Source: Gaiellaceae bacterium (GTDB lineage Bacteria > Actinomycetota > Thermoleophilia > Gaiellales > Gaiellaceae). From it: a stretch of 64,000 bases of DNA. Both the position numbers and the translations under genes were made by a program. Positions 42,764-63,181 of the stretch are shown in pieces. The notes below the pieces were generated by a model that had not been told where the DNA came from, searched no databases, and saw only the letters and a list, made by a program, of their open reading frames with translations. Numbering within the stretch: position 1 is the first letter of the stretch; every line of letters begins with the position of its first letter. The DNA is taken from positions 42,964 to 106,963 of the forward strand of contig DAITAO010000001.1 in NCBI GenBank assembly GCA_036824245.1, read 5' to 3'.

Positions 42764-44239
42764 GTGGACGAGATCACGACCTTCGGCGCGATGGTGCTCA
42801 TCGTGGCGGCCGGGTTCTCGCTCGCCATCCTGGCCAGCAAGGTGACGGAGCGGTTCCCGTTACCTGCGCCGGTCATCTTCCTGCTCGCCGCGGCGGTGGC
42901 CTCCGACGTCTTCACGGGACTCTCCGACGTGCTCAGCGTCCGCGAGGTCGAGCGCATCGGCACGGTTGCGCTCGTCCTCATCCTCTTCGACGGCGGGCTG
43001 CACGTCGGCTGGGGTCGCTTTCGGAGCGCCGCGTTGCCGATCGCCTCACTGGGCGTCCTGGGTACCTTCGCCACGGCCGGCGTGATGGCAGTCGCCGCGC
43101 ACGTGCTGCTCGGCTTCGACTGGACGACCGCGGGCATTTTGGGCGCCGCGCTCTCCCCCACCGACCCGGCCGTGATGTTCTCGGTGCTGGGGAATCGAGA
43201 GGTCGGCGGCCGCGCAGGGACGATTCTCGAAGGCGAGTCGGGCGCCAACGACCCGGTGGGCATCGCACTCATGGTGGGAATGCTCGAGCTCGCGACCGAG
43301 GACGACGCGACCTTCTTGGTGGTCGCCGAGGAGTTCGTACTCGAGATGGCGGTCGGACTGGCTGTCGGCGTGGGCGGCGGATTCCTGCTTCTGCAGCTGA
43401 TACGGCGGTTCTCGCTGCCCAGCGAAGGCCTCTACCCGCTGCGCACGCTCGCCGCGGCGCTCGTGATCTACGGGCTGGCGTCCGTGGCGCACGGGTCGGG
43501 CTTTCTCGCGGTCTTCGTCGCAGCCTTGGTGATCGGCGACGCGAGGGCCCCCTACAAGGCGGAGATCGAGCGCTTCCATACCTCCCTTTCCAGCCTCGCC
43601 GAGATCACCGTCTTCGTGGCGCTCGGACTGACGGTCGACGTCACAGCAGTCCTCTCGGACACAGCCGTTCTGGAGGCACTCGTGCTCGCGCTCGTGCTCG
43701 CGTTCGTGGCCCGGCCACTCGTCGTGGCCGTGCTCCTCTGGCCGGTGCGCATGCGCTGGGGTGAGCGAGCGTTCGTGGCCTGGGGAGGGCTGAAGGGCGC
43801 CGTCCCCATCCTCCTCGCCGCGTTCGCGCTCCTGGCGAACGTCGACGACGCGCAACGCGTCTACGACATCGTCTTCGTCGTGGTCGCCTTCTCGGTCCTC
43901 GTGCAGGGCTCGGCGCTTCCGTTCGTCGCCGCCCGCCTCGGGATCCGGATGCGTGACGTCGAACCGGAGCCGTGGAACATCTCCATCCGCCTGCGCCGCG
44001 AGCCGGCCGGAATCCGACGATTCGAGGTCCGACGAGGGTCACGCGCCGAGGGGCGGCGCATTCGCGACCTGCCGCTCTCCGAGCACAACTGGATCGTGGT
44101 CGTCATTCGCGAGGGTGAGGCGGTTCGCGCTGGTGGATCGACGGTGCTGGAGCCCGGAGACGAGGTCCTGGTGCTGAGCGACGAGGGCGACGCGCCTGCA
44201 TTGCAGCGGCTCTTCGAGGGAAAGCGTCAGTCCTCGTAG
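42764..44239 (+). CDS. K+(Na+)/H+ antiporter, CPA1 NhaP2/CvrA-type with C-terminal TrkA-C domain
   Basis: 491 aa. Has SPTDPAVMFSVL and ESGANDPVGIAL. The C-terminal RCK_C-like region has RIRDLPLSEHNWIVVVIREGEAVRAGGSTVLEPGDEVLV. GTG start preceded by TAGAGT-N6. Confidence 0.88.
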   Translation: MDEITTFGAMVLIVAAGFSLAILASKVTERFPLPAPVIFLLAAAVASDVFTGLSDVLSVREVERIGTVALVLILFDGGLHVGWGRFRSAALPIASLGVLGTFATAGVMAVAAHVLLGFDWTTAGILGAALSPTDPAVMFSVLGNREVGGRAGTILEGESGANDPVGIALMVGMLELATEDDATFLVVAEEFVLEMAVGLAVGVGGGFLLLQLIRRFSLPSEGLYPLRTLAAALVIYGLASVAHGSGFLAVFVAALVIGDARAPYKAEIERFHTSLSSLAEITVFVALGLTVDVTAVLSDTAVLEALVLALVLAFVARPLVVAVLLWPVRMRWGERAFVAWGGLKGAVPILLAAFALLANVDDAQRVYDIVFVVVAFSVLVQGSALPFVAARLGIRMRDVEPEPWNISIRLRREPAGIRRFEVRRGSRAEGRRIRDLPLSEHNWIVVVIREGEAVRAGGSTVLEPGDEVLVLSDEGDAPALQRLFEGKRQSS

Positions 44240-45081
44240 TCGAAGAACCCGCGTCCGGACTTGCGGCCAAGAAGCCCAGCCTGGGCCATACGGACGAGCC
44301 GCGGAGGCGGCGCCATGCGCGGTTCTTGCAGCGCCTCGTAGAGCGCCTCCGACGCGTGCACGTGGATGTCGATGCCGATCAGGTCGAGCAGCTCGCACGG
44401 ACCGAGAGGCCAGCCGGCGCCGTGCTTCATCCCGCTGTCCAGGTCTTGCGGCGTGATGTTGGCCTCGTCCAGCACCCGGACACAGTCGTTCATGAGCGGT
44501 ATGAGGACCCGGTTCACGACGAAGCCCGGCGTGTCGTTGCAACGGATCGGCGTCTTGCCGAGCTGCCCGGCGAAGGCGTAGGCCGTTTCGTATGCGTCGT
44601 CGTCGGCGAGCGCGGTGCGCACGACCTCGACGAGCGGCATCAGCGGCGCCGGGTTGAAGAAGTGCAGGCCGACAAAGCGCGCCGGCCGGCCGCTCGCCTG
44701 TGCGAGCTCGGTGACGGACAGCGCCGACGTGTTCGTGGCCACGATCGCTTCCGGCGCGAGCGCCCGATTGAGCTCGGCCAGCACGTCGTGCTTGACGCCG
44801 GGATCCTCGACGACCGCCTCGATGACCAGGTCGCAGCCGGACAGGTCGAAAAGGTCCGTCGTGAGAGTCAGCCGCCCAGCCGCAGCGTCGCGCTCCTCCG
44901 GCGTGATCCGCTCCTTCTCGACCTTGCGCGTCAGGAAGTGCTCGACGCGCTCCCTGGCACCCTCCGCCAGTTCCATCGACACCTCGCGCCCGACCGTGGG
45001 GAAGCCAGCCTCTACGCAGACCTGCGCGATGCCCGCGCCCATCGTCCCCAAACCGATGACGCCGACCGAGCGAACCTTCAC
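44227..45081 (-). CDS. hbd: 3-hydroxyacyl/3-hydroxybutyryl-CoA dehydrogenase
   Basis: From VKVRSVGVIGLGTMGAGIAQV (GTG at 45081). Has NTSALS and HFFNPAPLMPLVEV. The 106 upstream codons of the listed ORF run through the repeat element and are not coding. Confidence 0.9.
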   Translation of the reverse strand: MKVRSVGVIGLGTMGAGIAQVCVEAGFPTVGREVSMELAEGARERVEHFLTRKVEKERITPEERDAAAGRLTLTTDLFDLSGCDLVIEAVVEDPGVKHDVLAELNRALAPEAIVATNTSALSVTELAQASGRPARFVGLHFFNPAPLMPLVEVVRTALADDDAYETAYAFAGQLGKTPIRCNDTPGFVVNRVLIPLMNDCVRVLDEANITPQDLDSGMKHGAGWPLGPCELLDLIGIDIHVHASEALYEALQEPRMAPPPRLVRMAQAGLLGRKSGRGFFDYED

Positions 45082-45102
45082 CGGCTCGATCCTACGGAAG
45101 TA

Positions 45103-45297
45103 GCACGGGGGAACCCCTGGTTCTCGAACGGGGGAACCCCTGGTTCCCCCGTTGGCCCCCTCCTCGCGTGTGTTTGTGTCTGTTCCAACGCTTGCGGAGC
45201 CGGCGGCTCGCGCAGGAGTCCGAGTGTTGCCTCTCCGTCGTGAGCCTCCCGCCGGGCGAAGCCCGGCTCCGGCGGCAGATCGCGTGGTCTCCGACGG
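45103..45297 (-). repeat. dispersed repeat family 2, inverted copy (hairpin array plus CGGAGCCGG module)
   Basis: Aligns by eye over ~190 nt with the reverse complement of 49602-49816. Two GGGGGAACC-N3-GGTTCCCCC hairpins, then ggccccctcct, cggagccggcggctcgcgc, gttgcctctccg and gcccggctccggcgg. Confidence 0.8.
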
Positions 45298-45392
45298 GCG
45301 GCCGAAACCGAACCGGCGCGGCGGAAGTAGCGAATCTCGACCGGCTTGCCTCACGGAAGAGATTTCGCCCGCGACTCGTCTTGGAGGACACC

Positions 45393-45500
45393 ATGACACG
45401 CCCCCTGCTGATCGTTCTGTTGCTTGCGCTCCTCGCAGTGGCGCTCCTGGGCGCGCTGGCCCAGCTGGTCCGGGGACAGCGGCCCGTCCTCCTCGCCTAG
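45393..45500 (+). CDS. possible 35-aa hydrophobic peptide
   Basis: GGAGGA plus 4 nt precedes the ATG. Sequence MTRPLLIVLLLALLAVALLGALAQLVRGQRPVLLA, i.e. one TM helix. Short, so weakly supported. Confidence 0.3.
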   Translation: MTRPLLIVLLLALLAVALLGALAQLVRGQRPVLLA

Positions 45501-46159
45501 GGCGGCTTCCGCGCCAATACCCAGAGCCACCGGGCCTCGCCGTACTCTGGTCCGATCGAGCCGTCGTCGTGGTATTCCGGCTCGAGCATCGTCTCGAAGT
45601 CGTCCTCGACCACCTCGAGCCCGGCTTCGCGTACCAGACCCAGGGCGACCTCCGGCTCGTAACCGCTGAAGAACGTCTCGACGCCGAGCCACTCGCCGCG
45701 CCAGCCTTCGTTATCGGACCCCGGGAGCGAGGCGAGGAACCAGCCGCCGGGTCGCAGCCACCCGTGGATCCTCTGCAGCAGGGGGCCGAGCTGCTCGCGG
45801 GGCAGGTGGTTGAGCACGTAGAAGGAGACGACCGCGTCGTAGCTCTCGCCCCCGAGCTCGACTTCCATGATGTCGCCGTGCATGAAACGTGCTTCCGGCA
45901 GGCGTTCGCGGGCGCGCCGCGTCTGCTCGGCCGAGATGTCGACGCCGGTCAGCCGGCCGCGCTCTGCCAGTACGCGGGTCGAGCGGACCCCCGCGCCTGA
46001 GCCGAGCTCGAGCACGTCCGGTTGCAACGGGAGCCGCCGCAGCAGGTCGTCGAGGCGTTCGAGCCTCTGCGACCCGCGGATCGCCCGCTGCCACTCTGCG
46101 AAGCGGTCGGCGATCTGGTCGTAGCCCCGCTCGACGAGCCGCTTCGGATCGTCGGTCAC
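45497..46159 (-). CDS. class I SAM-dependent methyltransferase
   Basis: 220 aa. Motif I VLELGSGAGVRS, then GVDIS and DAVVSFYVLNHL. Confidence 0.85.
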   Translation of the reverse strand: MTDDPKRLVERGYDQIADRFAEWQRAIRGSQRLERLDDLLRRLPLQPDVLELGSGAGVRSTRVLAERGRLTGVDISAEQTRRARERLPEARFMHGDIMEVELGGESYDAVVSFYVLNHLPREQLGPLLQRIHGWLRPGGWFLASLPGSDNEGWRGEWLGVETFFSGYEPEVALGLVREAGLEVVEDDFETMLEPEYHDDGSIGPEYGEARWLWVLARKPP

Positions 46160-46569
46160 CCGAGCGCTCCCGCGATCGCCTCACGCGCTGCACGGAACTG
46201 ATCTGCTGTCAGGCGTATGTATGAGTGGCGGCCCAGGCTCCGAGGCAGGACGCCTGCCGCCTCGACCGGCGGCGCGTCGCGCAGGTCGCGCAGAGTGACG
46301 AGCGGACGGATCCCAAAGCGCCACGCCCACCGCGTGCGCGCCGGATCGTTCTCCGGGTCACCTATCACCTCGACCACGGCGAAGATCGCTTTCCAGCCGG
46401 ACGCGTAGCAGACGGCCACATCGCCACGCTGCACGCCGGGCCGCCGCGTTGCAGAGTGGGCACGGAGAGACTCGCGTCGAACGCGAGCATCCAGGCGTCG
46501 CTCGCCGCTGCCTCGCACGAGGAGCCAGTGTTCCCGGAGCGCCCCGGTGCTAGGCACTGGAAACAGCAT
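46156..46569 (-). CDS. EVE/PUA-like domain protein (tentative)
   Basis: 137 aa. HWLLV, GVQRGDVAVCYASGWKAIFAVVEVIGDPENDP and WAWRFGIRPLVTL resemble the EVE fold pattern. 4-nt overlap with the methyltransferase start. Confidence 0.45.
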   Translation of the reverse strand: MLFPVPSTGALREHWLLVRGSGERRLDARVRRESLRAHSATRRPGVQRGDVAVCYASGWKAIFAVVEVIGDPENDPARTRWAWRFGIRPLVTLRDLRDAPPVEAAGVLPRSLGRHSYIRLTADQFRAAREAIAGALG

Positions 46570-47874
46570 AGAGACGCCACTCGCCCGTTATGCCTTTCAG
46601 GACATGCGCCCCGCGGTCCTCGAACTCGATTCCCGAGCCCGCGACGAGATCCTTGACGGTCTGCGAGACGAGCACCTCCCCGCCCCGGGCCTCTGCGGCG
46701 ACGCGCGCGCCCGTGTGCACCGCGACGCCCGCCACCTTCTCCCCGAGCAGCTCGCATTCGCCGGTGTGCAGTCCCGCGCGGATCTCGAGCCCGATCTCGC
46801 CGAGAGCCGCAACGATGGCCCGCGCGCTGCGGATGGCGCGCGCCGGTCCGTCGAACGTGGCGAAGACTCCGTCGCCGGCGGTATCAACCTCGCGCCCGTG
46901 GTAGCGCTCCAGCTCGCGGCGCACCACGGCATGGTGCTGCTCGAGCAGCTCACGCCAGCGACGGTCGCCGAGCTCGGCCGCGCGCTCGGTAGACGCAACC
47001 ACATCGGTGAAGAGCACGGTGGCCAGCACCCGATGGGGCTCCGGGCCGCGCCGCACGCCGGTCAGGAAATCTTCTACCTCGTCGACGATCGCATCCGTGT
47101 CGCCGGCCCAGAGCGTGTGGGCATCGCCGTCCAGCTCCACGTACTTCGCCCCGGGAATCCGGGCTGCGATCCACCGCCCTTCTTCGACATTCACGTCGCG
47201 GTCGCCGGCCCGGTGCAGAACGAGAGTCGGCGCGTGGATCACCGGCAGCACATCGCGCACGTCGATCTCAGTGTTCATGCGCATAAGCGCGACAGCGGCG
47301 CCCGGGCTCGCGCTGCGCCGGAAGTAGGTGGCGAGCCGGCGCTTGAAGGCGTCGTCTTCGCTCGGCGCCATTTGATCGAGGTCCATCCGGTCCGCCCAGT
47401 TGCGCTCGAGCGCCTCGATCTCTCGCCCCCGCGCTTCGGGAGTCGGCGCCCATGGATAGTCGGCGCTCCAGATCCTCTTGGCGAAGCTGCCGTACAGACG
47501 AGCGCGGTCGTCCGCTCGGGATACGTGGCGGTGAAGAGGACGCTCATCAGGCCGCCTTCCGAGAAGCCGAACAGAGCGGCCTGCCGGCACCCGACGGCGT
47601 CCAGCACAGCTCGCACATCGTCCATGCGCTCCTCCATGGTCGGCAGCCGGTCGACAGGAACCGGATCAGAGAGCCCGGTCCCCCGCTTGTCGAAGAGGAT
47701 CAGTCGCGAGAAGCCGGCAAGCCGCCCCAGCACGTGCGCCTGCGCGGGCTCCTCCCACATGAGCTCCACGTTCGAGATCCAGCCCGGCACGTAGACGAGG
47801 TCGAGCGGCCCTTCGCCGACGACCTGGTAGGCGATGTTGACGTCACCCGACTTCGCGTAGCGCGTCTCCGGCAT
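46550..47874 (-). pseudogene. LipJ-like alpha/beta-hydrolase--class III adenylate/guanylate cyclase gene split by a 1-nt frameshift
   Basis: Frame A (47874-47497) reads ...GFSEGGLMSVLFTATYPERTTALV. Frame B (from 47497) reads LYGSFAKRIWSADYPW...VLFTDVVASTERAAELGD...GDGVFATF...RAGLHTGE. The junction GCGCTCGTCTGTACGGC lacks one base relative to GTC-CTG. Confidence 0.8.
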
Positions 47875-47985
47875 TCAGGTGAAGGCCTCCATGCGGGAGT
47901 GAGGGACGCTTGCTCGTGTGGTCAGGCTAAAGCTTGCCCCACGTCTCAGGGTGGTCAGAGAGGTACGCGAGCTTAGACTTCCGGC

Positions 47986-49413
47986 GTGGCGGTCACCGCG
48001 CTCGAGAAGCGACTCCTGATCGGCGGTGAGTGGGTAGAGACCGGCGAGTGGGGCGAGGTGCGCTCGCCCTACTCCAGAGCCGTCGTCGGCCGGGTCGCGA
48101 AGGCCGGGGCGCCGGAGGCACGCCGCGCGATCGACGCTGCCGAATTGGCCATGCGCGAGCCGCTCCCGGCTCACAAGCGCGCGGAGATCCTCGTGCGCGT
48201 CGCGGGAGCGCTCGGACGTCGTCACGACGAGGTGGCGCGGCTCGTCTCCGACGAGGCCGGCAAGCCGTTGAAGGCCGCTCGGATCGAGGCCGCTCGTGCC
48301 ATGTCGACCTACACGATGGCCGCCGTCGAGGCACGCAAGCTCGCCGGCGAGGTGGTGCCCATGGATGCGTCTCAGGCGGGCGAGGGGAAACTCGCCTTCA
48401 CGCTGCGCGTGCCGCGAGGCGTGGTCGGCGCCATCTCACCCTTCAACTTCCCGCTCAACCTGGTTGCGCACAAGATCGCTCCCTCGCTCGCGGCCGGCTG
48501 CGCCGTGGTGCTCAAGCCGGCCTCGCAGACCCCGCTCTCCGCGCTCCTGCTAGCCGAGCTCGAGGAAGAGGCGGGCTTGCCGCCCGGCTGGCTCAACGTG
48601 CTCGTCGGCCCGGCCTCGGAGATCGGCGACGTGCTCGTCGAGGACGAGCGCGTGGCTGTGCTCACGTTCACCGGCTCCGGAGATGTGGGCTGGGGGCTTC
48701 GCGAGCGCGCGCCACGCAAGCACGTGCTTCTGGAGCTCGGCAACGCAACGCCGGTGATCGTCGAGCCCGATGCAGACATCGACAAGGCCGCGCAGGCGAT
48801 GGCGCAGCACGGGTTCTCGTTCGCCGGCCAGAGCTGTATCTCCGTGCAGCGTGTCTACGTGGCGCGAACGGCCTACGAGCGTTTCCTGGAGCGCTTCGTA
48901 CCGCGCGTCAAGGCGCTGAAGGTCGGCGACCCCGCAGATGAGGGCACTGACGTCGGCCCGGTGATCGACGCGGACGCGCGCGAGCGCATCCTGGCCTGGA
49001 TCGACGAGGCGCGAACTGCCGGCGCGGAGGTGCTTGCCGGAGGCGAACTGGACGGCGAGCTGATCCAGCCGACGGTCATCGCCGACCCGCCGCGTGATGC
49101 CAAGGTGTCCTGCGAGGAGGTCTTCGGCCCAGTGGTGACGGTAACCCCGTACGACTCGCTCGACGAGGCTATCGAGCTCGCGAACAGCACCCGCTACGGC
49201 CTCCAGGCGGGAATCTTTACCGCCGGGCTGAACACGGCGCTGCAGGCCGCACGCGGGCTCGAGTTCGGCGGCGTCACCGTGAACGAGGCGCCCACGTTCC
49301 GCGCCGACCAGATGCCCTACGGAGGAGTAAAGGCATCGGGAAACACGCGCGAAGGGCCCGCATACGCCGTTCGCGAGCTCACCGAGCAGCGCCTCGTCGT
49401 CATCGACACCTGA
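47986..49413 (+). CDS. NAD(P)+ aldehyde dehydrogenase (GapN/lactaldehyde-DH-like)
   Basis: 475 aa. Has SPFNFPLNL, VLKPASQTP, LELGNATP and the catalytic Cys in FAGQSCISVQRV. GTG start preceded by TAGACT-N6. Confidence 0.92.
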   Translation: MAVTALEKRLLIGGEWVETGEWGEVRSPYSRAVVGRVAKAGAPEARRAIDAAELAMREPLPAHKRAEILVRVAGALGRRHDEVARLVSDEAGKPLKAARIEAARAMSTYTMAAVEARKLAGEVVPMDASQAGEGKLAFTLRVPRGVVGAISPFNFPLNLVAHKIAPSLAAGCAVVLKPASQTPLSALLLAELEEEAGLPPGWLNVLVGPASEIGDVLVEDERVAVLTFTGSGDVGWGLRERAPRKHVLLELGNATPVIVEPDADIDKAAQAMAQHGFSFAGQSCISVQRVYVARTAYERFLERFVPRVKALKVGDPADEGTDVGPVIDADARERILAWIDEARTAGAEVLAGGELDGELIQPTVIADPPRDAKVSCEEVFGPVVTVTPYDSLDEAIELANSTRYGLQAGIFTAGLNTALQAARGLEFGGVTVNEAPTFRADQMPYGGVKASGNTREGPAYAVRELTEQRLVVIDT

Positions 49414-49423
49414 CCCCCACGCA

Positions 49424-49816
49424 GTCGGACCGGAGCCGGGTTTGTCCCGGCGGGAGTCCGACTGCGGAGAGGCAACGCTGGAAGCCGCGCGCGAGCCGCC
49501 GGCTCCGACCACCCTGAACCACGCCGCCGCCCGCAAGGAGAGGGCCATGGAGGAACCACGGGTTCACCCGTGCGAGATCCGCAGGTTCCCCACTAGCCGC
49601 CGTCGGAAACCAGGCGAATCGCCGCCGGAGCCGGGCTTGTCCCGGCCGGAGGCCGACTGCGGAGAGGCAACGCTGGAAGCCGCGCGCGAGCCGCCGGCTC
49701 CGACCACCCCTGAACCACGCCGCCCCCCGCAAGGAGGGGGCCCACGGGGGAACCAGGGGTTCCCCCGTGCGAGAACCAGGGGCTCCCCCCGTGCGAGAAC
49801 CAGCGGTTCCCCGTGC
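49424..49816 (+). repeat. dispersed repeat family 2, two tandem units (about 49424-49593 and 49602-49816)
   Basis: Each unit has gtcgga..ccggagccggg-yttgt-cccggc, then gactgcggagaggcaacgctggaagccgcgcgcgagccgccggctccgaccac, caaggag(a/g)gggcc, and finally 2-3 copies of a 23-24-nt unit GAACCAGGGGTTCCCCCGTGCGA. Confidence 0.85.
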
Positions 49817-49832
49817 TAACTTCGTGCGGCGG

Positions 49833-50405
49833 ATGGCGAGACTCCAGCGCCTACGGGGGCGCGGCCGACCGCCCGCCTCTGACGAAGAGCAGGCCCACAA
49901 GCCGCCTGCGCTGCGCGCGCCGGCGCCGGGCGCTCTCAGGCGCGAGCGGAGGGCGCTCACGCGCGTGCGCGAGGAGCGGATCCGTGACCTGGGCGGCCTC
50001 GCGCTCGAGATGGTGCGCCGCCAGCGCTTCCGCCAGGACCTCCTTTTCGAGCAGTGTCACGAGATCCTCGTGCTCGAGCAGCGCCTGCACGAGATCGAGT
50101 CCTCGCTGGCCAGGGCGGCAGCGGCGCGGCATCGCGGAGGCGCCCCTCGCTGCGACTGCGGCGCGCCGCTCGCCTGGGGAGCACACTTCTGTGCCAACTG
50201 CGGCCGGCCCACGGGCGAGGCGGTCGTCACCTGCGCCCAGTGCGGCACGCCCCTGCCCGCAGACGCCAAATTCTGCGCCCGCTGCGGCACCGTCGCCGAG
50301 GACACCGCCGGGCCCGAGCACGTATCGGCGACCTACGAACAGACGGCCTCCGGTGAGCAGTTCTGGCACGACGTCGCCTCCGAACAGGATCCGTGGGAGC
50401 GGTAG
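49833..50405 (+). CDS. coiled-coil protein with double zinc ribbon
   Basis: ATG at 49833 (MARLQRL). CDCGAPLAWGAHFCANCG and CAQCGTPLPADAKFCARCG. Confidence 0.65.
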   Translation: MARLQRLRGRGRPPASDEEQAHKPPALRAPAPGALRRERRALTRVREERIRDLGGLALEMVRRQRFRQDLLFEQCHEILVLEQRLHEIESSLARAAAARHRGGAPRCDCGAPLAWGAHFCANCGRPTGEAVVTCAQCGTPLPADAKFCARCGTVAEDTAGPEHVSATYEQTASGEQFWHDVASEQDPWER

Positions 50406-56295: not shown

Positions 56296-56394
56296 GTCGG
56301 CGGAGCCGGGCTCAGCCCGGCGCAGCCACACCGCGGCCGCGGCGCGTCATTCTCTGAAGAAGGGGGTCAACGGGGGAAACATGGTTTCCCCCGT
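56296..56394 (+). repeat. dispersed repeat family 2, short variant ending in a hairpin at the DUF59 gene 3' end
   Basis: gtcggcggagccgggctcagcccggc ... gggggtcaACGGGGGAAAC-ATG-GTTTCCCCCGT. The 11-bp hairpin (56370-56394) begins 5 nt after the minus-strand DUF59 stop. Confidence 0.6.
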
Positions 56395-56398
56395 TCTT

Positions 56399-61214: not shown

Positions 61215-61766
61215 GTGTACCTCTCCGCCGGGGAGATCGCAGCCCGCGTCTCAGAGCTCGGAGCGACGATCGCCGGGGACTACGAGGGGCGCGAGCCGCT
61301 GCTCGTGGCGCCGCTCAAGGCGAGCCTCGTCTTTCTGGCCGACCTGTCGCGCGCAACGCCGATCCTGCACCACCTCGACTTCGTCGAGCTCGCCCCGTAC
61401 GAAGGGGGCGGCAACGGCGGCTCGATCCGGCTGCTCAAGGATCTCGACGCACCGATCGAAGGCCGTCACGTGCTCGTCGTCGAGGACGTGATCGACACCG
61501 GCCTCACGCTCAACTACCTGCGCAAGACGTTCACATTGCGCCGCCCGGCCTCGCTCGCCGCCGTGACGCTGCTCGACCGGCCCTACCGACGCCTCGTGGA
61601 CGACCTGCCGGTCCCGTACGTCGGCTTCACGGTGCCGGACGAGTTCTTCGTCGGGTACGGCTTCGACCTCAGCGAGCGCCACCGCAACCTTCCCGATCTC
61701 CACATCGTCCTGTCCCCCGAAAGTCAGGCGCGCTTCGCGGGCCATGACGACTTTCCGGGTGGTTGA
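61215..61766 (+). CDS. hpt: hypoxanthine phosphoribosyltransferase
   Basis: 183 aa. PRPP motif VLVVEDVIDTGLTL, then FVGYGFDLSERHRNLPDL. The last ~17 codons lie inside the family 3 repeat. Confidence 0.92.
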   Translation: MYLSAGEIAARVSELGATIAGDYEGREPLLVAPLKASLVFLADLSRATPILHHLDFVELAPYEGGGNGGSIRLLKDLDAPIEGRHVLVVEDVIDTGLTLNYLRKTFTLRRPASLAAVTLLDRPYRRLVDDLPVPYVGFTVPDEFFVGYGFDLSERHRNLPDLHIVLSPESQARFAGHDDFPGG

Positions 61767-61830
61767 CAGACAGACGCCGCGAAGTCCGTCTGCGGCGGCC
61801 CGGCGCGTCGCTTGCAAAGCGGCGAGGGCA
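61714..61830 (-). repeat. dispersed repeat family 3, diverged inverted copy
   Basis: cccccGAAAGTC-aggcgcgcttcgcgggccatgac-GACTTTCcggg, then gacagacgc..gcggcggcccggc. Alignable with the reverse complement of 62963-63071. Confidence 0.6.
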
Positions 61831-62962: not shown

Positions 62963-63181
62963 CCGCCGGAGCCGGCTTTGCCCGGCGGCGGCACACCGCG
63001 CGAAGCCGCGTCTGTCCTCAAAGACCTCCGAAAGTCGTCATGGCGCGCGCAGCACGCCGGACTTTCGGAGGCGAGCAGCCGGGCTTTGCCTGGCGCAGGC
63101 ACCGCGCGAAGCCGCGTCTGACTCAAATCCCCTCTGAAAGTCGTCATGGCTGCGGCGAAGCCGCAGCCGGACTTTCAGAGG
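62963..63181 (+). repeat. dispersed repeat family 3, two tandem ~110-nt units
   Basis: Each unit has (c)cggagccgg-ctttg-cccggcg, caccgcgcgaagccgcgtctg, and a long hairpin CCTC(C/T)GAAAGTC...GGACTTTC(G/A)GAGG (63025-63071 and 63131-63181). The 5' module resembles that of family 2. Confidence 0.8.

Follow-up and report, generated by a model that had tools for sequence, protein, structure and literature searches.

A dispersed family of modular hairpin repeats in the order Gaiellales, with separate copies in two spacers of a stable gene block

Dispersed repeats described in bacteria include the repetitive extragenic palindromes (REP) and bacterial interspersed mosaic elements (BIME) of Escherichia coli, Pseudomonas, and Stenotrophomonas, the miniature inverted-repeat transposable elements (MITE) Correia/CREE, ERIC, RUP, and Nezha, the BOX elements of Streptococcus pneumoniae, and the pneumococcal SPRITE repeats, which resemble rho-independent terminators. 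Here we describe an element that resembles each of these in part. It was found in a stretch of 64,000 nt (the window) of a Gaiellaceae assembly (GCA_036824245.1, contig DAITAO010000001.1), corresponding to C42:42964-106963 of a 3.24-Mb draft genome (143 contigs, 69% G+C, 89% complete), where copies in inverted orientation stand on both sides of a 4-kb gene block. We consider it rather probable that the element, taken as a whole, represents a dispersed, non-coding, modular repeat family of Gaiellales whose copies are separate insertions, of mobile origin and then kept at gene ends. It is best filed as an order-specific variant of the bacterial intergenic repeats (REP/BIME/MITE/BOX-like), and the family seems to be undescribed.

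The REP/BIME features and the MITE definition used for comparison were those reviewed in PMC3184786. Like the element, REP and BIME are G+C-rich extragenic hairpins that occur singly or in clusters combining motifs, are biased to gene 3′ ends and convergent gene pairs, show compensatory changes in their stems, and have proposed roles in termination or RNA stability. They are, however, palindromes of 20–40 nt present in hundreds of copies, whereas the Gaiellales units span 95–215 nt (short and long forms together), contain long conserved non-palindromic blocks and no conserved open reading frame (ORF), and number tens per genome. The GTAG-type head of REP is absent here, and REP make no flank duplications, which the element has. 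Bacterial MITEs are likewise shorter than 400 bp, non-coding, intergenic, folded into stem-loops, and devoid of an internal transposase; their presence varies between relatives, and some have target duplications (PMC3184786). The element differs from them in that it shows no consistent terminal inverted repeat or conserved 5′ terminus, in that its flank duplications occur in a minority of copies and are 9 to >70 bp long instead of a fixed 2–10 bp, in that no parent insertion sequence with matching ends was found here, and in that its copies share blocks and not spacers, whereas the products of a transposition burst are alike along their full length.

With BOX the element has in common a modular build (in BOX, a fixed head, a variably repeated unit, and a fixed module; here a core, a 3′ module termed M′, and zero to three 23-nt tail hairpin units), dispersal between genes, and no enzyme of its own. 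The two are unrelated in sequence and in host phylum, BOX has no known target duplication, and the head of the Gaiellales element (module H) is also common to several families with different cargo. SPRITE is a dispersed repeat with a strong terminator-like hairpin after genes, whereas the hairpins of the element have no U-tract and are joined to a large conserved non-hairpin core. The only bacterial elements documented here with long direct repeats of variable length on insertion (8–514 bp) are IS1549 and IS1634 of the IS1634 family (PMC2266710), one of the two from an actinobacterium. These are autonomous, 1.5–2 kb long, and encode a DDE transposase; no ends in common with the Gaiellales element were found.

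A preliminary description of this DNA, made from the sequence alone, had reported inverted copies of a structured repeat around the gene block. Their positions and facing orientation were borne out by a repeat search of the window, by BLAST, and by an alignment of the three units. The repeat search returned the inverted pairs 45195–45297/49600–49702 (103 nt, 82% complementary), 45195–45272/49430–49507 (78 nt, 81% complementary), and 45107–45168/49728–49789 (62 nt, 94% complementary), together with a tandem direct pair, 49430–49514/49625–49709 (96% identity, period of 195 nt). Since a 217-nt unit matched the 45.1-kb copy by BLAST with E = 5e-43, this similarity is far above chance. One reverse copy (45105–45321) faces two tandem forward copies (about 49424–49815), with units of roughly 160–215 nt; the opening GCCGGAGCCGGG hairpin modules point inward, and the GAACC-N3-GGTTC hairpin tails point outward.

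Between the copies lie genes for a 35-aa peptide, an S-adenosylmethionine methyltransferase, a protein with a weak EVE match (E = 4e-4, below the Pfam cut-off), an alpha/beta hydrolase whose ORF overlaps that of an adenylate/guanylate cyclase domain (apparently frameshifted), and an aldehyde dehydrogenase. This agrees with the gene list given earlier, the EVE match being the weak member, and no transposase or recombinase was found within the block by protein domain search of its genes, again as described. Outside, a 3-hydroxyacyl-CoA dehydrogenase gene (hbd) stands on the left and a gene for a zinc-ribbon protein on the right. A 9-kb BLAST comparison across the locus was made with 11 species of the same genus (congeners, G001–G011; the present genome is G000), and the genes were collinear and in the same orientation in congeners from hbd through the zinc-ribbon gene. 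Both junctions were then taken from nine or ten congeners and aligned. Nine of them (G001, G003, and G005–G011) are repeat-free at both junctions, and G004 is also repeat-free at the hbd junction. There the congeners have a spacer of 23–183 nt (23 nt in G001, 43–47 nt in G010 and G004, and about 170–180 nt in G003, G006, G007, G009, and G011, where it holds a homologue of the 35-aa peptide gene alone), against 425–480 nt in this genome. At the aldehyde dehydrogenase junction the spacer is element-free and 101–276 nt long in congeners, and measures about 510–520 nt here. Since the congeners are collinear and repeat-free at these junctions, both sites are lineage-specific insertions into a stable block. 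The 45.1-kb copy and the 49.4–49.8-kb array are separate insertions in two intergenic spacers of this block, the forward pair arose by local tandem duplication, and the block is neither carried nor inverted by the repeats.

These results bear directly on the proposal, made in the preliminary description, that the inverted copies might bound a composite mobile unit, or serve as crossover sites for a 4-kb segment that is invertible or prone to recombination. The copies are indeed inverted, 81–94% complementary, and 4.1–4.6 kb apart, so that inversion by homologous recombination would be possible in principle. But in at least nine congeners the block keeps its order and orientation while the flanking repeats are absent, and in no case was it found to move, invert, or come and go together with them: the comparison of related genomes gave identical synteny without flanking repeats. 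The genes inside are of housekeeping type, with no transposase or recombinase. In addition, with 24 arrays spread over 3.2 Mb, chance alone would give about 0.9 pairs no more than 5 kb apart, half of them inverted, and the bracketing calls for no particular cause. The aldehyde dehydrogenase gene (47986–49413) has its best match in G002 and G004 on another contig, and not between the hydrolase/cyclase and zinc-ribbon genes; because this gene alone is displaced, the block varies by single genes and not as a unit, unlike what whole-block movement would give. We regard a composite or invertible segment as very improbable, and for the genomes searched it is refuted.

Further traces of insertion were sought in the flanks. 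Copy 1 (45105–45321, minus strand) is flanked by an exact 10-bp direct repeat, CGGAAGTAGC, present as two exact copies only: the left one (45095–45104) begins right at the end of the 3′ hairpin tail of this reverse copy, and the right one occupies 45322–45331. The congeners have a single ACGGAAGGAGG at this site. As evidence of insertion this candidate target-site duplication is, alone, suggestive only, the chance of such a recurrence being about 0.003 per locus and about 0.07 over 24 loci, as estimated by sampling of this genome. The C106 array has a 9-bp flanking repeat that starts exactly at the 3′ hairpin. Candidates for the target-site duplications that the preliminary description had recommended looking for were therewith seen in two of the 24 arrays of this genome (10 and 9 bp), in a minority of copies and with no fixed length.

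Metagenome-assembled genomes (MAGs) were analyzed in the same respect by local alignment of the 160 nt upstream with the 160 nt downstream of each unit, with mismatched flanks as the control. Flank duplications above the 99th percentile of controls were found in 12 of 103 units (10/55 short forms and 2/48 long forms), and in 10 of these 12 the downstream repeat begins 5–9 nt past the terminal hairpin. The repeats extend over 20–75 nt at high identity, and a weaker similarity continues towards module H. Taking all cases together, duplications range from 9 to >70 bp. Several regenerate gene parts: the 5′ two-thirds of a tRNA-Ile gene (L068), a C-terminus with its stop codon (L070), the start of metH in three MAGs (L078, L132, and L165), and the atpH stop/atpA start junction in two MAGs (L080 and L113). 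In the essential loci among these, the short forms lie antisense, seven codons into atpA (L080 and L113), about 14–25 codons into metH (L078, L132, and L165), and within tRNA-Ile (L068); the duplicated gene end restores an intact gene, and a short, possibly translated pseudo-start remains upstream.

Insertion polymorphism, by which the mobility of MITEs is recognized, was also found, with empty orthologous sites for both window insertions and for loci C76 and C86. C76 is occupied in G000, G002, and G009 and empty in G010, G004, and G011; C86 is occupied in G000 and G010 and empty in G004. At C90 an empty site was seen in G004, the other BLAST coordinates being ambiguous. The distribution is patchy and does not follow flank similarity, and each difference, judged from the sequences, may reflect gain as well as loss. 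Adjoining the C76 element on its downstream side (L003:1680-1800, about 83.41–83.53 kb of C76 in G000, and orthologues), about 60–90 nt beginning CCTGCCAAGCAGGAGCGGACCCGTTCCTCACCTCCCGGGCG are conserved in six congeners to a far higher degree than the spacer around them; this stretch has no Rfam match and may be an unannotated leader or small RNA.

Two rounds of nhmmer against this genome gave 41 matches, among them 32 full copies (at least 130 of 158 model positions covered) in 24 loci or arrays on 19 of the 143 contigs, the tandem arrays containing two to four units. The genome-wide search for copies proposed in the preliminary description therefore returned a family, full and partial, that is not confined to this locus; simple local duplication, the fallback offered there, accounts for the tandem copies at 49.4–49.8 kb alone and not for the pair overall. 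The element shares with MITEs that it is small (less than about 400 bp), non-coding, multi-copy, and dispersed. Its hairpin modules, about 40–60 in 3.2 Mb, stay below the hundreds per genome typical of REP. Full copies were found by BLAST in all 11 congeners, and other genera and families of Gaiellales contained either full copies or the 3′ module M′ (about 40 nt) alone. In a scan of one genome per GTDB species, the exact 30-nt H motif occurred in at least 116 stretches, nearly all in MAGs labelled Gaiellaceae, Gaiellales, Thermoleophilia, or unclassified Actinomycetota; in viral contigs no exact match of this motif was found. A 2.6-kb contig binned as Allosphingosinicella (L119, DASQKE010000153.1) carries a typical long-form Gaiellales element, and is probably a binning error. 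In the one complete chromosome (G043, 3.0 Mb, dnaA at 0.957 Mb, holding locus L074) all 20 matches lie at 0.10–1.23 or 2.51–2.83 Mb; the 1.27-Mb stretch from 1.23 to 2.50 Mb has none, so that in this single genome one replichore is apparently mostly element-free.

Alignment of the copies defined the anatomy of the long form. A full unit begins with an optional 5′ module, present in 16 of the 32 copies, which consists of the purine-rich AGGGAGGGGGC, about 3 nt, and a GGGGAACC-GCA-GGTTCCCC hairpin (in general form GGGGAACC-N3-GGTTCCCC). A spacer of about 35 nt, including CGCTCYCGAGAGCC, leads to module H, a near-invariant 30-nt opening hairpin (GCCGGAGCCGGGCTT-NN-CCCGGCGGGAGGC), and the conserved blocks GGAGAGGCAAC and CGCGAGCCGCCGGCTCCG follow, separated by spacers of nearly fixed length and free sequence. 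Module M′ comprises GCAAGGAGGGGGC, 4 nt, and a 12-bp stem with a 3-nt AGG loop, and is followed by the tail units. The short form of other Gaiellales, about 95 nt long, consists of H, 25–35 free nt, and M′. The terminal hairpin (27 nt, 12-bp stem) also occurs alone and as tail units, and it corresponds to the basic REP/BIME unit, an imperfect, extragenic, G+C-rich palindrome of 20–40 nt. Mosaic clusters as known from BIME are likewise present (H, blocks, M′, and tails, with arrays of two to four units and with H common to other families). Sites of the form GAACC-N(2–5)-GGTTC number 58 in the genome, of which 45 lie in or beside the element, while about 12 sites are expected from composition. 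The 16 copies with the 5′ module have a GGGGAACC-N3-GGTTCCCC hairpin module at both ends; being palindromic, these ends are formally direct and inverted repeats at once. Copies with flank duplications have unrelated 5′ termini, and 5′ ends in general fall into discrete classes.

The three copies around the block follow this plan with some losses. In copy 1 (nhmmer match C42:88090-88246, E = 1e-36; confirmed by the alignment and by the empty site of the congeners), read on the minus strand, a 5′ extension (45321–45274) precedes module H (45273–45244), the core, M′ (a Shine-Dalgarno-like block and the terminal hairpin, 45163–45131), and one extra hairpin unit as tail (45130–45105). Copy 2 (49424–49599, plus strand; E = 9e-30, alignment to copy 3, and empty site of the congeners), the first of the tandem pair, is shortened at its 5′ end, lacking 17 nt before H, and contains H at about 49430–49456, a degenerate M′ at 49537–49567, and a degenerate linker hairpin at 49570–49592. 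Copy 3 (49600–49815, plus strand; E = 3e-36) has H at 49624–49653, the core, M′ at 49733–49765, and two more tail hairpin units of 23–24 nt at 49766–49815.

The position of copies relative to genes was tallied from gene calls by a crude GC3-based ORF picker. Between co-directional genes, about nine copies of this genome lie sense and about eight antisense, and the MAG long forms are divided into 14 sense and 16 antisense; orientation is neutral. Long forms are rare in divergent promoter regions (1/45, against 14/45 between convergent genes), and short forms show no such avoidance (11/49 in divergent regions). Copy 1 of the window is among the few in a divergent region. In several cases 2–4 nt separate the end of a copy from the stop codon of the opposite-strand gene.

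Comparison of the copies in this genome revealed a sharp contrast between blocks and spacers, with a median identity of 88% in conserved columns and of 38%, near random, in the 79 variable columns. Copies at the same site in different species (C76 in G000, G002, and G009; C86 in G000 and G010) are no more alike than any two, with 83–88% in conserved and 35–42% in variable columns. Two histories are allowed by these facts. Copies may be old and vertically inherited, held by purifying selection, lost precisely between flank repeats, and kept with like repeats by gene conversion; or they may have been inserted repeatedly at preferred sites, by cut-and-paste or from outside the genome. Under either history, a contrast this sharp between blocks and spacers speaks for selection on the blocks. 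A use of the variable segments, three per copy, as guides or spacers was considered and rejected for this genome, since their BLAST matches were no more numerous than those of reversed sequences.

The hairpins themselves were analyzed for covariation. The terminal stem is 95.5% Watson-Crick paired in 131 units, with three basal pairs that covary freely, and in the H stem 10–11 doubly compensated variants occur at each of two pairs. Since the changes are compensatory, both hairpins fold within one strand, as RNA or single-stranded DNA. Of the nested complementarity noted in the preliminary description, the GCCGGG-N5-CCCGGC stem is conserved with compensatory changes, while the 9-bp outer stem GCAGTCGGA/TCCGACTGC is particular to the copy at 49421–49465. 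The long-range pair CGGAGCCGG/CCGGCTCCG can form in 95% of cells, but it is almost invariant, shares positions with the inner stem, and is short of one pair wherever that stem has changed in a compensatory manner. RNAalifold predicted the hairpins plus weak long-range pairs alone. A test for conserved RNA structure, suggested at the same time, gave two local covarying hairpins and no global fold, and a described Rfam family or a covarying global fold with a consistent transcription context was not found. As a further candidate, pairing of the variable middle with the sequence preceding H was tried. To the eye this long stem was persuasive in several copies, but it was dropped, the partner from the same copy and a mismatched one scoring alike (−28.2 and −27.5 kcal/mol, p = 0.66).

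These folding data bear on the possibility that the copies are structured RNA genes or cis-acting RNA modules whose main function lies at the RNA level, new copies being rare. Three or four Shine-Dalgarno-like purine blocks on one strand, or CCUCC anti-Shine-Dalgarno-like blocks on the other, could then bind ribosomes, mRNAs, or a common protein, and the H hairpin with its purine internal loop would be a protein handle. This would suit the strong conservation of the blocks beside spacers that keep their length and not their sequence, the compensatory maintenance of stems that must fold single-stranded, and the sharing of H, like a handle, with at least three other repeat families of the genome. 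It would also suit the short forms that put a Shine-Dalgarno-like block and a hairpin directly before gene starts (fabH, tsaD, and cysH-like genes), and the positional orthologues that keep their blocks after the spacers have become saturated with changes. Against it, Rfam gave no match in the window at gathering thresholds, nothing relevant over the element at E ≤ 10, and none for other H-bearing repeats at E ≤ 1. Compared with shuffled sequences, folding of the whole unit showed no gain on the plus strand (z = −1.1) and just a marginal one on the minus strand (z = −2.0), and a column-pair scan found no covarying helix outside the two hairpins and none in the spacers, in line with the failure of the long stem above. 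A consensus scan for sigma-70 promoters at 44.9–50.1 kb returned no sites, and the copies have no conserved promoter. Orientation to genes is random, and G-U against A-C mismatches (19 vs. 12) give no strand signal. The spacers, unconserved between positional orthologues and without excess genome matches, are not target-specific seeds. On balance a primary RNA function is possible but unlikely.

Host DNA sites for a sequence-specific protein complex of the nucleoid, of replication, or of segregation, selected as double-stranded binding sites, would likewise explain conserved blocks at fixed spacing, an orientation neutral to transcription, and the non-random placement in the complete chromosome, where all 20 matches fall outside 1.23–2.50 Mb. 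The H stem and the basal pairs of the terminal stem, however, vary freely while remaining complementary, a sign of single-strand folding, for which a dimer-bound double-stranded palindrome has no need; flank duplications and empty sites point to insertion; and tandem arrays of two to four units with variable tails are untypical of such sites. We consider this explanation quite improbable.

The preferred reading, a family of mobile origin kept at gene ends, has in turn to be weighed against several observations that speak against it. The first concern the copies. The best non-tandem pair reaches 61% in variable columns, and the copies with nearly intact flank duplications of 57–64 bp have a best relative in their own genome of only 83–84%. 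Because non-tandem copies are dissimilar in their spacers and there are no close donors, no recent copy-and-paste is visible. Copies with duplications lack both a conserved 5′ terminus and a clear terminal inverted repeat. High identity of flank duplications could come from gene conversion rather than youth, and comparative sequence does not distinguish ancient insertion with repeated losses from insertion that occurred repeatedly. A U-tract is missing from the hairpins, and a scan of 44.9–50.1 kb for the intrinsic-terminator consensus was empty. Among RNA sequencing runs, none was shown to contain this DNA.

The others concern a mobilizing enzyme. DDE_Tnp_1 and RVT_1 were not found in this assembly (89% complete), nor was DDE_Tnp_1 found in the contiguous and element-rich assemblies G001 and G002. 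The four Y1_Tnp genes of this genome have no hairpin within 2.5 kb, so that the RAYT (Y1) gene flanked by REPs, a mark of REP/BIME, is absent. Y1_Tnp tracks the element weakly among 40 relatives (19/23 element-positive against 9/17 element-negative), and G002, which has most element matches, is without it. On the complete chromosome 10 copies run with replication and 6 against; since this one chromosome shows no replication-strand bias, a route through a single-strand DNA transposase is unsupported. The trans-acting autonomous element or transposase expected for a MITE was not found in searches for DDE_Tnp_1, RVT_1, and Y1_Tnp, other transposase families not having been searched.

Candidates for the agent of spread were accordingly set aside one after another. 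A RAYT/Y1 transposase was not supported, its genes being unflanked and only weakly co-occurring with the element, and strand bias being absent; nor was an IS1634-type DDE partner for the long duplications, with no DDE_Tnp_1 here or in G001 and G002; nor was spread by a reverse transcriptase, with no RVT_1 in this genome. A search for donors of the freshest-looking insertions gave best non-self matches of only 83–84%. In its specific form the retroposon route would resemble a short interspersed nuclear element: reverse transcription, into staggered nicks, of an RNA that stops at the terminal hairpin would leave a sharp 3′ boundary, 5′ ends that vary, and target duplications differing in length. 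The 3′ boundary is in fact precise (0–4 nt past the hairpin), 5′ ends are variable or of two classes, and flank duplications vary from 9 to >70 bp. Yet the genome has no reverse transcriptase domain, the 5′ ends form discrete classes and no continuum, donor copies are not identifiable, and the weaker flank similarity runs to module H, so it is no real evidence of carried-along 5′ sequence. We give retroposition very little credence.

The MITE/BIME-like half of the preliminary description is supported in outline: the element is dispersed, intergenic, modular, and hairpin-rich, its presence varies between species, and some copies have target duplications. For the family of mobile origin that we favor, the following course may be proposed. 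The element would be, or would have been, a non-autonomous mobile element recognized through its single-stranded hairpins. It would enter where genes begin or end, with a staggered duplication of the target that differs widely in length (9 to >70 bp), and this duplication would permit landing inside gene ends without killing the gene. Once inserted, copies would be kept by selection as hairpin modules at gene ends, where they would most likely stop or insulate transcription or protect RNA 3′ ends; since the terminal hairpin is palindromic, this role could be exerted in either orientation.

A bolder interpretation, which we offer tentatively and think unlikely, would see in these repeats a Gaiellales superfamily of modular hairpin elements that share the 30-nt handle across cargo types, stand under purifying selection copy by copy, and enter by an undescribed mechanism that duplicates 10 to >70 bp of target, moved by an enzyme other than the DDE (IS4-type), Y1, and reverse-transcriptase candidates tested. 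Such duplication would let elements sit without damage in essential operons and gene ends, such as atpH/atpA, the metH start, and tRNA-Ile. They would then form a new class of domesticated mobile element with a dedicated hairpin-binding partner.

Relatives of the element are present elsewhere in the window and genome, and variants of H open at least two other repeat families here, one of them family 3. A short-form relative of the same superfamily lies at 56300–56395 (plus strand; C42:99263-99358), between convergent genes and 4 nt from the stop codon of the opposite-strand gene; it comprises an H variant (56300–56323), a spacer of about 35 nt, and a purine block with the terminal hairpin (56359–56390). 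Family 3, a second repeat family with other cargo and a GAAAGTC...GACTTTC hairpin, is represented by a diverged unit at 61714–61830 (minus strand), in which the terminal hairpin alone is clearly visible, and by two tandem units at 62963–63181 (plus strand), each opened by an H-type hairpin; its H variant was verified in these tandem units and in other genomic copies. A further family of at least 15 copies has an H-type hairpin, GCGGAGCCGGGCTCTGCCCGGCGG, within a flanking stem whose sides covary between copies (GGCGGCG/CGCCGCC, CCTTCG/CGAAGG, and GGCTTCG/CGAAGCC) and a conserved segment of about 40 nt before it; in G000 it was seen on contigs C1, C13, C25, C34, C46, C49, C76, C84, C107, C117, C128, and C143 (loci L206–L212). 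Two sites of G000 (C133:59493-59540 and C2:7062-7140) have an H variant followed by two terminal-type hairpin modules, without the long core. On C133 a PAPS-reductase-like gene apparently starts with the ATG located at the 3′ foot of the second hairpin, and a further ATG at the 5′ foot of this hairpin opens an 8-codon mini-ORF that ends in an ATGA overlap with this start.

The 35-aa hydrophobic peptide gene (45393–45500, plus strand; no Pfam match) is a neighbor of the element and not part of it. At the corresponding position G003, G006, G007, G009, and G011 have homologous ORFs of about 36 codons that possess a Shine-Dalgarno sequence of their own, and the ORF, transcribed divergently from hbd, is missing from G001, G004, and G010. 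From these comparisons it looks like a real small membrane-peptide gene. In mechanical ORF lists long open frames cross the repeats at 44227–45399 (minus strand), 49442–49819 (plus strand), and 49400–49960 (minus strand), and hbd is lengthened by 106 codons; gene callers may misplace starts beside elements.

For annotation, the 4-kb block is ordinary chromosome and should be treated as such, not as a mobile or invertible cassette, and gene callers should mask or model the family, the problem being plain from the long spurious ORFs that run across repeats. The family marks an abundant, barely cultured order of soil actinobacteria, and it unites three features not met together in known families of REP, BIME, or MITE: nearly invariant blocks with randomized spacers, a handle hairpin common to several repeat families, and target duplications long enough to regenerate gene ends. 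If the long duplications stem from the chemistry of insertion, an enzyme with unusual staggered cutting awaits discovery; and if the selection is real, each copy would serve the cell, probably at transcript ends.

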